Shown here: positions 13,234 through 47,126 of the stretch, piece by piece
Layout: the number at the start of each line of letters is the position of its first letter
Numbering within the stretch: the first letter of the stretch is position 1
Position numbers and translations under genes: made by a program
NCBI GenBank assembly: GCA_002428525.1
Contig: DIWU01000014.1
Span: 16,637-80,636 of the forward strand
Source: a bacterium UBP14_UBA6098
GTDB lineage: Bacteria > UBP14 > UBA6098
Length of the DNA stretch: 64,000 nucleotides
Direction of reading: 5' to 3'
Notes under the pieces: model-generated
Seen by the model: the letters and a program-made list of their open reading frames with translations, nothing else
What the model was told of the DNA's origin: nothing
The model's database searches: none

Positions 13234-13387
13234 CCGGGCGTCGGGCGCGCATGCGCGCGGCGTCGGGGCGGTAGAAAACCCTTCAATATTAGGAAGATTT
13301 CCTCCGCCCCGCCGCGGCCGCGCGCTCGAGACAAAAGCTCTGCACAACTGCACCCGTCATTATCGAGCGCGCGGCACCGACGCCCGG
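13234..13387. repeat. REP/MITE-like palindromic intergenic element (copy 1)
   Basis: Left end CCGGGCGTCGG-GCGCGCATGCGCGC-GGCGTCGGGG and right end GCGCGCGGCACCGACGCCCGG, with nested hairpins (CGGGGCGG...CCGCCCCG, AGGAAGATTTCCT). Confidence 0.5.
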
Positions 13388-16390: not shown

Positions 16391-16448
16391 CCCCATCGAA
16401 TCCATTTATTGCGACTCGCAACATTGTCGTTATACACACCCTCTCATA

Positions 16449-16570
16449 GGGCGTCGGTATCACCTGCATCGATGATGCAGGTGATCGAACCGCGGCGCAA
16501 TGAGAGACAACCGCAAAAAATATAAACACGGGTTGCGCCGCGGTTGCCGCGCATGCGCGGACCGACGCCC
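16449..16570. repeat. REP/MITE-like palindromic intergenic element (copy 2)
   Basis: Outer IR GGGCGTCGG...CCGACGCCC. Inner perfect hairpins CACCTGCATC-GAT-GATGCAGGTG and AACCGCGGCGCAA...TTGCGCCGCGGTT, plus the palindrome CCGCGCATGCGCGG. Confidence 0.55.
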
Positions 16571-16677
16571 GAAGCGATGTCCGCAAGCGGGGGAGAAGCC
16601 GATACTACATTGATTATCAAGGAGATACAGCCATTGAGTGTTTGATAAAACATGAGGGCAAATTTTTTATTTTCGGG

Positions 16678-16707
16678 CTTGACAAATCGTTAAATAAAAA
16701 TATTATA
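16678..16707 (+). promoter_or_regulatory. sigma70-like promoter (TTGACA-17-TATTAT)
   Basis: TTGACA at 16678-16683, a 16-18 nt AT-rich spacer, and TATTAT/TTATAT at 16700-16707. Confidence 0.4.
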
Positions 16708-16712
16708 TCTTG

Positions 16713-16956
16713 ATCTTCGATAATGTTCTTTACGGTATTTGCCTACTCCTAAACGCGAAAGCGTTAACGCCGTTGGAAAATGCGGGATTAGTGAGTGCCG
16801 CTTTTGGGGGATAATCGTTGCATTTCCCCTCCTTTCCCCAACGATGTCCCCCCCTCCGACGGCTATGGAGCTTTTATCCCTTCTATTCCTGCCCCTTTGT
16901 CGAAGATTATAATCTCACTTAAAAGGCGCCGCCCCCCGCGGCGCTTTTGATTTTTT
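16713..16956 (+). ncRNA. candidate small RNA or long attenuator-type leader (promoter to intrinsic terminator, ~245 nt)
   Basis: Bounded by the promoter above and a strong terminator (GGCGCCGC-CCCCC-GCGGCGC plus TTTTGATTTTTT, 16925-16956). No ORF of 60 aa or more. Ends 58 nt upstream of the cbpA-like start. Confidence 0.3.
16925..16956 (+). terminator. Rho-independent terminator
   Basis: An 8-bp GC stem with a CCCCC loop followed by a T-tract. Confidence 0.6.
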
Positions 16957-20785: not shown

Positions 20786-22027
20786 ATGGCATTAGTCAGA
20801 CCCTTCAAAGGGCTTCGCCCGAAACCCGCATTCGCGCAGAAGATCGCCTGCCTTCCCTACGATGTTCTCTCGAGCGAGGAGGCGCGAGAGCTTGCGAAAG
20901 ATAATCTGATCAGCTACCTTCATGTGGTGAAACCGGAGGTAGATCTCCCCGAACAAACCGACCTCTATTCCGACGAGGTTTACGAGATGGGCGCTGTCAA
21001 CCTGAAGAGGCTCATCGCCGCCGGATATATGATTCAAGATACCAAGCCGAGATTGTATGTTTACAAACAGGTTATGGGCGACCATTCGCAGATCGGCCTC
21101 GTGGCCTGCGCGAGTTGCGACGAGTATGACCGCGACATTATAAAAAAACACGAACTCACTCGGAAAAAGAAGGAAGACGACCGAACACGGCATATCTTAA
21201 CCCAAAACGCGCAAAGCGGACCGGTTTTCCTAATATACAAACATAAAGACCAAATCGATGCATTGATAAAGAAAGTCGTTGCCCAAAAACCCATCGTCGA
21301 TTTCACCGCCGAGGACGGAATCAAGCATACGCTCTGGATCGTCGAGGATTCGTCGATTGAATCGGCGATAGTCGAGGAATTCGCAAAGATCGACTACCTC
21401 TATGTCGCCGACGGCCACCATCGAAGCGCCAGCGCGAGCCGTGTTTGCGCCCAGCTGAAAGCGAATAATCCCAATCACACCGGCCAAGAGGAATATAACT
21501 TCTTCCTCTCGGTGATCTTCCCCGACAACCAGTTGAAGATACTCGATTACAACCGCGCGGTTAAAGACCTGAACGGCAATGACAAAGACGCCTTTATGGA
21601 AAAGATCGCCGAGAAATTCGATATCGCCGAAATAGGGCAAGAGCAATACAAGCCGAATGCGCTTCACGAATTCGGTATGTTCATCGACAAAGAATGGTAT
21701 AAACTCACGCCCAAGGCCGGTTCCTTCAACAACGCCGACCCCGTCGCCTCGCTCGATGTCTCGATCCTTCAAGAAAATCTCCTCGCGCCGATCCTCGGAA
21801 TCGGCGACCCCCGAACCGACGAACGTATCGACTTCATCGGCGGAATCCGCGGCCTCGGCGAACTGGAAAAGCTCGTCAATACAAAAAAAATGGCCGTCGC
21901 ATTCGCAATGTTCCCCACCGGAATCGACCAACTCATGGCCATCGCCGACGCGGGCAAGATTATGCCCCCAAAAAGCACTTGGTTCGAGCCTAAGCTCCGT
22001 AGCGGGATGGTTGTGCATCTATTGTAG
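20786..22027 (+). CDS. DUF1015 domain-containing protein
   Basis: N-terminal VRPFKGLRP....PYDVLSSEEAR is characteristic of DUF1015. Confidence 0.7.
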   Translation: MALVRPFKGLRPKPAFAQKIACLPYDVLSSEEARELAKDNLISYLHVVKPEVDLPEQTDLYSDEVYEMGAVNLKRLIAAGYMIQDTKPRLYVYKQVMGDHSQIGLVACASCDEYDRDIIKKHELTRKKKEDDRTRHILTQNAQSGPVFLIYKHKDQIDALIKKVVAQKPIVDFTAEDGIKHTLWIVEDSSIESAIVEEFAKIDYLYVADGHHRSASASRVCAQLKANNPNHTGQEEYNFFLSVIFPDNQLKILDYNRAVKDLNGNDKDAFMEKIAEKFDIAEIGQEQYKPNALHEFGMFIDKEWYKLTPKAGSFNNADPVASLDVSILQENLLAPILGIGDPRTDERIDFIGGIRGLGELEKLVNTKKMAVAFAMFPTGIDQLMAIADAGKIMPPKSTWFEPKLRSGMVVHLL

Positions 22028-22032
22028 CTTTC

Positions 22033-22181
22033 AACCGCCCCCGCCGGCGTCGCAGGCCTTCGAGGGCATAACCCTCGAAGGCCTCCGCATTTTCGCCGCG
22101 CACAATCGCTCTCGAAGATCGGCCGATTCATGCGGCGAAAATGCGTGGCGCGGAACGCGCGCGACGCCGGCGGGGGCGGTT
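22033..22181. repeat. REP/MITE-like palindromic intergenic element (copy 3) with 21-bp perfect terminal inverted repeats
   Basis: AACCGCCCCCGCCGGCGTCGC (22033-22053) is the exact reverse complement of GCGACGCCGGCGGGGGCGGTT (22161-22181). Nested perfect 13-bp hairpins lie at 22054-22084 and 22087-22144. Confidence 0.65.
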
Positions 22182-22234
22182 GGCGGAGTTCGATTTGGGA
22201 CATTGAAATTGGCTTTATATTTGCGTATTATTAA

Positions 22235-23896
22235 ATGATTATGGTATTGAGGTTTCGTGAAATAGGTCTTTTGCTTCTGCTGTCGGGGGCTTGCCTCACA
22301 GCCGAGGTTTCGCCGGCCGCCCTTAAGTATTACATCGACGGCATGGCCTTCGAGTTCGAGGGCGATTATGATCGCGCGCTGGGTAGCTATCTCATCGCTG
22401 AAACCTACGCCCCCGACAATCCGGAGATTCTGCTCACTTTGGCCGAGCTTTCTTTGGCCTATAACGAACCCGAACAAGCGCTTTCGTGGTTCACTCGGCT
22501 TGTGAATATCGACGACCAAAACGTCCATTACAGGCTTGGCGCGGCTGAGTCCGCGATTGAGGCACGTCAGATTCAGATCGCCTTCGAGAACCTCCAATGG
22601 CTGGTCGAGAATAAAAAAGCAGATTACGAAACACGTTTCCATTATGCCACTACTCTGTTGGCTCTTGGCAGAGAGCGAGAGGCGATCAAGGAATTGGGCC
22701 GCATTGCGAAGGATTTTCCGCAAAGCCCCGACCCGCATGGCCTTTTGGGAAGCATTCATCTCACAAATAACAACAACAAAAAGGCCATCGAGGCCTTTTC
22801 CCGAGCGATAGAAATAGACTCGAGCTATTCCCGCGGCTACTCCGGACTGATCGCGGCCTTGGAGGCCGAGGGTAGAATTGCCGAATCGCAGAGCTACCAG
22901 CTTCGTTATCTCGAGCTGAATCCCTTCGATCTCGAGGCGCACAGACGTTTGATCGGAAGCTTCATCGACACCGGCGACTTCGCCTCCGCCTACGAGATCG
23001 CCTCGTCATATATCCGAAAGATGCCGGAGGATTGGCCGATTGTCCGCCAGACAGCCTTCCTTGCCTTCACTGTCGGAGATTATGAGGAAGCCGTCCGACA
23101 TTTTCGAGACTATCTTGTGACCGCTCCAGACGATCGGGATGCGATAACATTCTTCGGTCGAGCGCTCTTCGAATGCGGCATGCCCCACGAAAGCATTGCG
23201 CAATACAAACTCGCCCTCGATATCCAACGGGACCCCGCCCTTTTTATCGATCTCGCCCTCGCGCTTTCGGAGGCCGATAGCGCAGACAGGGCATTGGACA
23301 TCCTCGAAATCGCGCGCACCGAGTTTCCGGAAAATCTCGCCGTGGTCTTTTACGAGGGCGTGATCTTCTCGCGAAGCCGCGAGTATAAGATGGCCATCGG
23401 AAGTTATTCGGAGGTCGTCACTCGCGAACCGGGCAATCTCCAAGCCCTATTTGGCCTAGGCGACGCACTCGAACGGCTCGGCCTCAGAGATTCCGCAATA
23501 TCGGTATTTCGGACAATTGTTAAAAAGGCGCCGGAAGACCCCCTCAGCGCCAACTACCTCGGCTATCTGCTCGTCGAGGAGAATCGCGAGCTTGCCCTCG
23601 CGGAAAAACTCATCTCTCTCGCAATCTCTAAGGATCCGTTAAATCCTTCATATATCGATAGTTATGGCTGGCTTCTTTATCGAAAAGGAAGGTTCCAGCA
23701 GGCCCTCGAAAAACTACTTTTAGCCGAGGAACTCGCGGAACCCGAAGACCCGGTTATTCTCGAACATATAGGCATTGTTCTCGAAGAAACCGGCGACAGC
23801 CTTAGGGCAATCGAATATTATATTCGAGCGATCGAAATCGACCCGCAACTTGAAAAATCACGCAAACGCCTCGAGGAGCTACAAAATGGGCAATGA
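22235..23896 (+). CDS. tetratricopeptide-repeat protein (signal peptide)
   Basis: N-terminal signal peptide and a multi-TPR architecture throughout. Confidence 0.7.
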   Translation: MIMVLRFREIGLLLLLSGACLTAEVSPAALKYYIDGMAFEFEGDYDRALGSYLIAETYAPDNPEILLTLAELSLAYNEPEQALSWFTRLVNIDDQNVHYRLGAAESAIEARQIQIAFENLQWLVENKKADYETRFHYATTLLALGREREAIKELGRIAKDFPQSPDPHGLLGSIHLTNNNNKKAIEAFSRAIEIDSSYSRGYSGLIAALEAEGRIAESQSYQLRYLELNPFDLEAHRRLIGSFIDTGDFASAYEIASSYIRKMPEDWPIVRQTAFLAFTVGDYEEAVRHFRDYLVTAPDDRDAITFFGRALFECGMPHESIAQYKLALDIQRDPALFIDLALALSEADSADRALDILEIARTEFPENLAVVFYEGVIFSRSREYKMAIGSYSEVVTREPGNLQALFGLGDALERLGLRDSAISVFRTIVKKAPEDPLSANYLGYLLVEENRELALAEKLISLAISKDPLNPSYIDSYGWLLYRKGRFQQALEKLLLAEELAEPEDPVILEHIGIVLEETGDSLRAIEYYIRAIEIDPQLEKSRKRLEELQNGQ

Positions 23897-44369: not shown

Positions 44370-44495
44370 CGGGCGGCGTCGGGCCGCGAATCGCGGCGGG
44401 GCGTGGCGCGCATTCGATAGCGGTTTATACATCTATTTCAGCGCGCGCCGCGCCCCCGGCGACCTGCCGAGGGCGGGTCGCACCGACGCCGCCCG
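44370..44495. repeat. REP/MITE-like palindromic intergenic element (copy 4)
   Basis: Perfect 13-bp IR CGGGCGGCGTCGG...CCGACGCCGCCCG ~100 nt apart. Nested hairpins GCCGCGAATCGCGGC and GGCGCGC...GCGCGCC. Confidence 0.55.
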
Positions 44496-45639: not shown

Positions 45640-45740
45640 ACCCCGGGCGTCGGCCCGACCGATGGTCGGCGCGAGGCGGCCGATCGAAGATTTCCGCAAA
45701 ACCGACATTTTCTTCGGCCGCCTCGCCGGCGCCGCGCTCA
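45640..45740. repeat. REP/MITE-like palindromic intergenic element (copy 5, partial)
   Basis: CCGGGCGTCGG core at 45643, hairpin CCGACCGATGGTCGG, and a perfect 13-bp IR GCGAGGCGGCCGA...TCGGCCGCCTCGC. Confidence 0.45.
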
Positions 45741-45866
45741 CGACGGCCCTTTCCCCCGCACCGCCGACCACCACGACCGGCAGGCCCTTCAAGCTCGGCC
45801 TCATCATAATCTCGACCGAGGCGAAAAAGGCGTCCATATCGACAAGCATTATCTCGCGTGGCGCGC

Positions 45867-47126
45867 TCATATCGCCCTCGGGAGTTCGTCCCAATCGGTC
45901 GTGTAGGCGGGGGATTTCATCTCGCGCCGCATATGCCATGCGGCTCCGAGGCCGGTCGCGGCGGGCACGACCGTATCCCTTCCGAAGCGGTGGTTCAGCT
46001 CGTCCATAACGGAAATCGCGTTCTCGTTCCGGCCGCGCATCGCCGTGTCGAAGAGGTTTGTTTGAACCGAATCCGCGGGGACAACTCCGGTCGCGGTGAC
46101 CGCGGCCTTTTTGTAGCGATAACCCGCGCGGAAGATTCGCTCGAGGCCGCTTGCCGCATAGTCGATGATCTCCGATGTGTCCGATGTTGCGACCGGGAAG
46201 GTCCTTGTAAGGTGCGCCGAATACTGCGGGTCTTCCTCGCGAAAGCGGTTGGTTGTGATATATATATCGATCGCGCCGGCGACTGATTCTTGACCTCGGA
46301 GCTTCTCGGCGACGCGCGCGGAGTAGGACGCGACGGCCTCCTTCAGCTCCCGAAGTTCTTCGACAGGCCGTCCGAAAGAACGCGAGAAACATATCCCCTG
46401 CTTGGGCGGGGGCGCCATATCGAGCGGAATGCACGATATTCCTCGAAGTTCCAGCACGGTTCGGAGAAGCGTGACGCCGAACTCCTTGCGTATAATCTGC
46501 TCGTTCGCCCTCGAAAGATCGAGCGCGCTATTTATGCCCATATTTCGAAGTCGCTTGGACAGTCTGCGCCCGACGCCCCAAATATCGATGATGTCGGTCG
46601 CTTCGAGGGCCTTTTCTCGAAACCTCGATTTGAAAAGGTCGAGAACGCCGCCCGCCTTTGGCGATTTTTTCGCGATTCGATTTGCGATCTTGGCGAGGGT
46701 TTTTGTTTCGGCTATTCCAACAGATACCGGCAGGCCGGTCCATGTGTAGATTCGGCGCTTTATCCGCCTTCCTTCCGCGTCGAGATCGTCGGTGCCGTCG
46801 AGGCCGACGAAGGCCTCGTCTATCGAATAAACCTCGATGTCGGGCGAGAAGCCGCGGAGTATGTCCATAACGCGCGCGGACATATCGCCGTAAAGCTCGT
46901 AGTTCGAGGAGAACACCCTCACGCCCTTTCGGGCCAGCTCGGCTTTGATCTTGAAATACGGCCCCCCCATCTCGACGCCGAGGGCCTTGGCCTCCGCCGA
47001 CCGCGCGATGATGCAACCGTCGTTGTTGGAGAGCACGACTACCGGCCTGTTCTTGAGGTCTGGCCGGAAGACCTTCTCACAGGAGGCGTAGAAGCTATTG
47101 CAGTCGATGAGGGCGTATATCTTCAT
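45867..47126 (-). CDS. umuC: Y-family translesion DNA polymerase, UmuC-like (Pol V catalytic subunit)
   Basis: [30 protein letters not shown] and SIDEAF motifs. Lies downstream of an S24-peptidase (umuD) gene. Confidence 0.85.

Follow-up and report, generated by a model that had tools for sequence, protein, structure and literature searches.

REP, BIME and REPIN sequences, as described in E. coli and Pseudomonas, are GC-rich extragenic palindromes that occur in many copies, often past stop codons and in either orientation, and both of their strands fold. The known roles of REP and BIME elements include the protection of mRNA 3′ ends, the enhancement of termination and service as DNA–protein binding sites. 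Individual REPs are single imperfect hairpins of 20–40 nt with a conserved sequence (the GTAG head), and they are RAYT-linked. Integron attC sites are alike in structure and in a short box at the stem base, with little other shared sequence; they reside directly after ORFs, and long ones can branch at their ends. Bacterial MITEs such as Correia/NEMIS, ERIC and RUP are intergenic elements of 100–170 bp with inverted-repeat ends and long stems, whose copies are similar to one another, have conserved termini and are accompanied by target-site duplications. Intrinsic transcription terminators are gene-specific, near-perfect GC-rich stems of unique sequence that follow stop codons and are themselves followed by a T/U run. 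Among organellar sequences, the double-hairpin elements and GC clusters in the mitochondria of fungi and algae are small, structure-conserved, multi-hairpin intergenic elements.

We examined a 149-bp element (element A, 22033–22181) within a 64,000-nucleotide stretch of a bacterial genome, hereafter the window, to whose numbering all positions refer unless a contig is named. By folding, this element forms a four-way junction in which an outer stem encloses three perfect hairpins (HP1, HP2 and HP3), with junction linkers of 0–2 nt. Its parts, and the promoter that follows it, are:

22033–22053, + strand: 5′ arm of the outer stem, AACCGCCCCCGCCGGCGTCGC, 21 nt, the exact reverse complement of 22161–22181
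22046–22052, + strand: conserved box GGCGTCG within the 5′ arm
22054–22084, + strand: HP1, a 13-bp perfect stem with the 5-nt loop CATAA
22086–22145, + strand: HP2, a 14-bp perfect stem with a 32-nt loop (22100–22131)
22148–22160, + strand: HP3, GCGCG-GAA-CGCGC
22161–22181, + strand: 3′ arm of the outer stem, with the conserved box CGACGCC at 22162–22168
22203–22231, + strand: sigma-70-like promoter of the TPR gene, TTGAAA-17-TATTAT, 21 nt beyond the element

The 21-bp perfect terminal inverted repeats described by a sequence-only reading of this locus proved correct in all coordinates and in sequence, and the outer stem grows to 22 bp when C22032/G22182 is counted. The same reading reported two perfect 13-bp hairpins, which is accurate for HP1, whereas the HP2 stem is in fact one base pair longer. 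Structure prediction returns a strong four-way junction for RNA and for DNA, and on both strands. Folded as RNA, the element has a minimum free energy (MFE) of −124.1 kcal/mol, compared with −73.4 ± 4.1 for shuffled sequences (z = −12.5). The corresponding energies are −123.8 (z = −12.2) for the reverse strand and −81.2 (z = −12.7) with DNA parameters. When up to three mismatches are allowed, the 21-mer matches just the two arm sites, with a chance expectation of 0.01. The sequence of element A is the same in separate assemblies (Logan, JGI and ENA samples), demonstrating that it is not an assembly artefact. One Logan contig, ERR700194_761 (L005), stops within HP3 of the element, at window position 22156; palindromes such as this one may fragment short-read assemblies.

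Element A has the setting originally proposed for it, between a DUF1015 gene and a TPR gene. Its start lies 5 nt past the stop codon (22025–22027) of the upstream DUF1015 gene (20786–22027; Pfam E = 1e-109), and it precedes the TPR promoter listed above. No T-run follows it on either strand, and the DUF1015 gene has no separate terminator behind it. Two minus-strand ORFs that overlap the element (22031..22942 and 21769..22203) had been suspected to be artefacts of it, and in agreement with this suspicion neither is predicted by gene callers.

Element A is not a unique locus. It is one copy of a family that comprises five complete elements and one truncated element in roughly 100 kb of this genome. 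Five further loci share its architecture; the sequence-only reading had recognised neither the four-way junction nor its recurrence elsewhere in the window. The copies were located by sliding-window folding of the whole window with correction for GC content. This search yielded five structure outliers, namely the intergenic elements A, B, C and D and a fifth in coding sequence at 58.7 kb. The other members of the family are:

13234–13387, − strand: member B, 154 nt, outer stem CCGGGCGTCGG/CCGACGCCCGG
16449–16570, + strand: member C, 122 nt, outer stem GGGCGTCGG(T)/(A)CCGACGCCC
44370–44495, − strand: member D, 126 nt, outer stem CGGGCGGCGTCGG/CCGACGCCGCCCG
45643–45726, + strand: truncated member F, in which the outer 5′ arm CCGGGCGTCGG, HP1 and HP2 are kept
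L037:13972–14132: member E, a complete copy just past the window end

Each of the five complete copies, folded alone, independently forms the four-way junction. With copies oriented by the order of their modules (outer stem, HP1, HP2, HP3), a shared plan emerges for complete elements of 120–165 bp. The outer stem measures 9–21 bp, and its junction-side 7 bp (GGCGTCG/CGACGCC) are invariant. HP1 has a stem of 6–22 bp and a loop of 3–5 nt (33 nt in member B), HP2 has in every copy a stem of 11–14 bp and a loop of 30–33 nt, and HP3 is a GC-rich hairpin with a 5–9 bp stem and a 3–4 nt loop. Member B carries two hairpins with 33- and 32-nt loops, followed by an HP3 of GCGCG-CATG-CGCGC. In member C, HP1 is 12 bp with the loop GAT, HP2 is 13 bp with a 32-nt loop, and HP3 is CCGCG-CATG-CGCGG. 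The equivalent parts of member D are a 10-bp HP1, a 14-bp HP2 with a 31-nt loop, and an HP3 of GCCGCG-ATT-CGCGGC. The box occurs in two variants: GGCGTCGC in A and E, where the HP3 loop is GAA, and GGCGTCGG(T) in the remaining four copies (B, C, D and F). A covariance model derived solely from A detects E (E = 2e-6) and D (E = 9e-5), and the scores of both are higher on the strand that was assigned from module order.

An exact-match or BLASTN search would wrongly make element A appear unique. BLASTN is blind to the family because the copies share just the 7–9 bp box plus the architecture.

Member F (HP1 CCGACC-GAT-GGTCGG; HP2 of 13 bp with a 30-nt loop) lacks HP3 and the outer 3′ arm, and is joined directly to the N-terminal remnant of a DinB/IMS-family gene. 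This remnant of about 50 amino acids (45724–45870, − strand; Pfam IMS, residues 11–50, E = 1.4e-8) lies directly downstream of a full-length UmuC-like gene (45867–47126), to whose N-terminus it is 48% identical. The remnant ends exactly where HP2 of F ends, suggesting that one end of a deletion fell at the palindrome. Over element C, gene callers predict a 69-amino-acid ORF (16444–16653, − strand). The palindrome is almost certainly responsible for this spurious ORF, as for the two at element A.

MAFFT gave no usable alignment of the copies, and pair statistics were therefore scripted on a module alignment, in which each copy was split into modules and the module strings were verified to map exactly onto the sequence. 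Across the family, 228 of 232 stem positions are Watson–Crick pairs, none is a G·U pair on the element strand and four are mismatches, a paired fraction that arises partly by construction because the module alignment derives from each copy’s own fold. Two of the four mismatches are C·A pairs in D, which correspond to G·T on the other strand, and member E has two bulges. When 3′ partners are column-shuffled, 60.6 ± 2.9% of positions remain paired (maximum 70.7% in 2000 trials), and when the partner is slid by 1–3 columns this value is 30–40%. At least two types of Watson–Crick pair are present in 30 of the 33 inner pair columns, and the seven outer pairs are invariant. The weight of the evidence is the independent recurrence of one architecture together with the conserved box.

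Sequence identity between copies, taken from the structure-based alignment, is 70–100% in the outer stem, 8–55% in HP1 and 0–71% in HP2, and in the loops it is at chance level. Members C, D and F have ACC/GGT in common at positions 4–6 of the HP1 stem (HP1 base NCGACC/GGTxxx), with compensated pairs at positions 1–3 (ATC/GAT, GCG/CGC and CCG/CGG). These compensated stems indicate that the copies are diverged relatives that keep their pairing rather than independent inventions. No shared loop motif (GAARAT, AAYCGC or GGAAATCTT) is commoner than in shuffled loops (P = 0.1–0.96).

The lack of G–U pairs that had been noted for the stems of element A holds for all 232 family stem positions, whereas controls from the same window contain 8–11% (7.8% in the RNase P RNA folded by MFE and 10.7% in random 150-nt windows). 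A family under purely RNA-level selection would not be expected to lack G·U pairs at all 232 positions. The energies of the two strands also lie within about 4 kcal/mol of each other, with the exception of D.

Database searches place the family outside described classes. Rfam 15, applied at gathering thresholds to the whole window and with permissive E-values at the locus, contains no credible match to element A; the best match is isrG, with 13 bits against a threshold of 100. The sole passing match in the window is the class A RNase P RNA (RF00010, 27117–27469, − strand, 216.9 bits). Full-text literature searches found no description of such elements. The plasmid collection gave chance GC-rich matches only. 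In viral contigs scanned for both box variants, the matches fold no better than the GC-rich background, one single-hairpin perfect palindrome (L223) excepted, and none of them has the four-way fold of the family. Searches with the element loops found no match among 50,697 phage records, and their matches in the local 100 kb are not above chance. A role for the loops as CRISPR-like spacers or guides was rejected on these two results. A retron msr/msd non-coding RNA was also rejected, given the multiple copies and the lack of an adjacent reverse transcriptase.

The source organism is an uncultured member of the Fibrobacteres–Chlorobi–Bacteroidetes (FCB) group. Its nearest DUF1015 homologues belong to Calditrichaceae and Cloacimonadales MAGs (60–67% identity), and one SbcC homologue carries a Zixibacteria label. 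An assignment to Hyd24-12 (Fermentibacter) was rejected on GC content, which is 64% in that lineage and about 55% here. The source genome encodes proteins with type IX secretion (T9SS) C-terminal sorting domains, and the organism is present in methanogenic enrichment and digester samples. A DUF1015 protein search of the genome collection and metagenomes returned relatives of at most 67% identity, none with the element; every relative retrieved has a plain intrinsic terminator after DUF1015, at the position of element A. No comparable structures are present in 38 kb from two syntenic relatives reached via SbcC homologues, adjacent perfect hairpins are found a single time across some 1.1 Mb from other genomes, and a further 10 kb of the genome holds no new copy. 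All same-organism contigs are 100% identical, that is, clonal, and six copies from one clonal genome therefore offer no between-strain sign of selection. The family looks previously undescribed and, in a thin sampling centred on one clonal source genome, looks lineage-specific.

All six copies occupy spacers between transcription units, and a promoter-like site is located 0–105 nt beyond five of them:

A: 5 nt past the upstream stop codon; promoter-like site 21 nt beyond
B: 7 nt past the upstream stop codon; promoter-like site 23 nt beyond
C: 58 nt past the upstream stop codon; promoter-like site 105 nt beyond
D: behind the canonical pta terminator; promoter-like site 35 nt beyond
E: between two divergent promoter regions; promoter-like site 0 nt beyond

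Element D lies between the pta intrinsic terminator (44537–44512, − strand) and the promoter of a clp ATPase gene (44332–44304, − strand). A weak promoter-like site ends 3 nt ahead of E, and no promoter is found ahead of A or C. Relative to transcription, A, C and D are oriented with it and B and F against it, and E is ambiguous; there is no bias. The elements are flanked by housekeeping genes on either strand (ProRS, DnaJ, Clp and Pta).

A terminator scan that identified canonical terminators elsewhere in the window (44537–44512 and 16922–16948) found nothing terminator-like within A, B or D. Its one match overlapping C is a weak 5-bp minus-strand call within HP2. Because the copies lack a U-tract, they are not classical intrinsic terminators. 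Over about 100 kb, the annotation contains no gene for a transposase, an integrase, a reverse transcriptase or a Cas protein and no Y1_Tnp (RAYT) match, and no RVT domain is found in the neighbours. Direct repeats that could represent target-site duplications do not flank A, B, C or D, whether the full stem or the core is considered. Element E is flanked by TTGC on both sides, and TTGC is also part of its extended stem.

Several other features were observed in and around the window. Between element C and dnaJ (16679–16948, + strand), a strong sigma-70-like promoter (TTGACA-16-TATTAT, 11 of 12 matches) is followed after about 215 nt by a strong intrinsic terminator (16922–16948). This interval contains no convincing ORF and no Rfam match, which marks it as a candidate for a small RNA or leader. 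At L086:3240–3470 and L087:3200–3470, some 17 kb ahead of where the window starts, there are tandem 41-bp units, each composed of two small hairpins, CCCCGGCCTTCGGCC and CCCCTCTTTAAAGAGGGG. Two assemblies have five and six copies of this unit, which is their sole difference in that intergenic stretch, and the array is followed by CCTATAA and CCCTTTA microsatellites. Just past the window end (L037:14140–15010 and L038:14140–15010) is a cluster of REP-like hairpins that end in CCCCTACAG or CCCCTACGG and have a GTAG head on the other strand. These hairpins are separate from the four-armed family, and the cluster also includes the double-hairpin unit of the 41-bp array. The L037 and L038 assemblies diverge in gene content after about 14750, which marks a rearrangement or misassembly point. 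Cumulative GC skew reaches a minimum near 40 kb, where gene orientation turns from mostly plus to mostly minus; the skew follows the coding strand, so the minimum is not readable as an origin or terminus.

By analogy, the family places nearest to REP/BIME-type palindromic elements among the systems described above. Its copy number and extragenic location agree with such kinship, with six copies in about 100 kb, all intergenic. In contrast to single-hairpin REPs, its members are four-way junctions of 120–165 nt with 7–9 conserved bp, near-perfect stems of unrelated sequence and no RAYT in about 100 kb; element A, for example, has 149 nt, four helices and no GTAG head. The four-way junction, the near-complete sequence turnover and the strictly Watson–Crick stems are what is unusual in the family relative to REP/BIME elements.

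The likeness to attC sites, in shared structure, stem-base box and position after ORFs, is countered by the lack of RYYYAAC/GTTRRRY boxes, of extrahelical bases and of an unpaired central spacer. Furthermore, there is no integrase and no cassette array, and the flanks are housekeeping genes on both strands. Integron attC was rejected as an identity for these elements, whose ends depart from the consensus, whose stems are perfect and for which there is no Phage_integrase match. Members have the size, inverted-repeat ends, intergenic location and long-stem folding of bacterial MITEs, which the sequence-only reading had listed among the DNA-level options, but they fit that class poorly. Target-site duplications are absent, the interiors are not similar in sequence and the termini vary. 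It is the junction-side 7 bp that is conserved, and the distal outer stem (9 to 21 bp) differs in every copy. Intrinsic terminators share with the family gene-specific, near-perfect GC-rich stems after stop codons, yet the family has no U-tract, four helices rather than one, and a box common to its copies. Finally, the mitochondrial elements resemble the family in being small, intergenic and multi-hairpin, but they are organellar, shorter, conserved in sequence and without an enclosing outer stem.

We tentatively favour, as a possible though far from assured explanation, that the family members are lineage-specific relatives of REP/BIME elements: DNA-level palindromes that probably act as orientation-independent barriers between operons, a function we infer from structure and placement. 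Behaviour of the REP/BIME kind at the DNA level follows from the Watson–Crick stems, the equal folding of both strands, the intergenic location and the multiple copies. The same properties bear out the earlier preference for a DNA-level palindrome over a conserved non-coding RNA. If this explanation is correct, a DNA-level process, either template switching during replication or arm-to-arm conversion, may preserve the perfect complementarity of the arms, and selection for a stable fold on both strands might add to such maintenance or replace it. Template switching has been found to create and maintain perfect hairpin stems (PMC8794818). The elements would then be tolerated or selected structured spacers. 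Transcription from either side would produce a very stable junction, of roughly −100 kcal/mol, that could serve as a block. This block might shield the upstream 3′ end from exonucleases and limit read-through into the next promoter, as REPs do in enterobacteria. A barrier role is favoured by the fact that A and B abut stop codons, and by the DUF1015 gene, which is without another terminator at the site where its relatives have one. Against it stands the absence of a U-tract after every copy. The positions of D, behind a canonical terminator, and E, between divergent promoters, indicate that not every site requires a barrier role.

A simple stable structure does not account for the invariant junction box or for the constant loop length of about 32 nt, and both features hint at a specific partner. 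An unlikely alternative is accordingly a structure-specific DNA site, in which a branched cruciform, or a fold of single-stranded DNA at replication, is read through the junction box by a dedicated protein. Candidate readers include a recombinase, an HUH nuclease, gyrase or a nucleoid protein, by comparison with IntI/attC and RAYT/REP. Pairing restricted to Watson–Crick and equal folding of both strands suit such a site, as do a conserved box exactly at the junction where the rest varies, a constant HP2 geometry (loops of 30–33 nt with no common motif), mixed orientation with respect to transcription and the location of E upstream of divergent promoters. However, about 100 kb of sequence encode no integrase, Y1/HUH transposase or reverse transcriptase, extrusion of a cruciform with a 32-nt loop carries a high energetic cost, and the elements lack the extrahelical bases or asymmetries that usually set strand choice in folded-DNA sites. 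In its boldest form, which we regard as unlikely, the proposal is that the elements constitute a new class of sequence-hypervariable four-way junctions in an FCB-group lineage, in which concerted evolution through arm-to-arm conversion maintains the perfect pairing of the arms and a dedicated structure-specific protein reads the junction box of the folded form, in the manner of REP/RAYT or attC/IntI. If this is true, such elements would escape any repeat finder based on sequence similarity.

Mobility and RNA function would account for other parts of the data. A MITE-like non-autonomous element, whose core within 8-bp inverted repeats (GGCGTCGS/SCGACGCC) spread into inter-operon spacers or pre-existing hairpins, would explain the variable distal outer stem. 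It would also fit the multiple, exclusively intergenic copies, the Logan contig that stops inside element A and the abundance in this genome of small palindromic repeats of other kinds. The element is missing from the syntenic site in relatives, although this absence says little because those relatives are distant (at most 67% amino-acid identity). We consider this explanation improbable, given that neither the full stem nor the core is bordered by duplications, that no transposase is nearby and that the HP1 and HP2 interiors are almost unrelated, at odds with recent transposition. The strong fold and covariation could alternatively reflect a structured RNA family, either trans-acting or derived from 3′ untranslated regions, in which the junction would serve as scaffold and the variable loop, about 32 nt long, as guide or antisense module. 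Loops of constant length and variable sequence, and the weak promoter-like site that ends before E, are in keeping with this idea. It is nevertheless improbable in view of the missing G·U pairs (8–11% would be expected), the lack of an Rfam match and of a promoter ahead of A or C, the chance-level loop matches to phage records and the local 100 kb, the absence of a loop motif above shuffles and the mixed orientation to flanking genes.

Catalogues of bacterial repeats and non-coding RNAs rest on sequence similarity; with nothing but its architecture and a 7-bp box conserved, the family would escape BLAST and is outside Rfam. It also offers a clean natural example in which stems have turned over extensively while almost no G·U pairs or mismatches have arisen. 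It is thus useful for separating compensatory evolution at the RNA level from palindrome maintenance in DNA through processes such as template switching or conversion. Should the elements prove to insulate neighbouring operons or to bind a structure-specific protein, a little-known candidate lineage of methanogenic consortia would have supplied a new type of genome-organising element.
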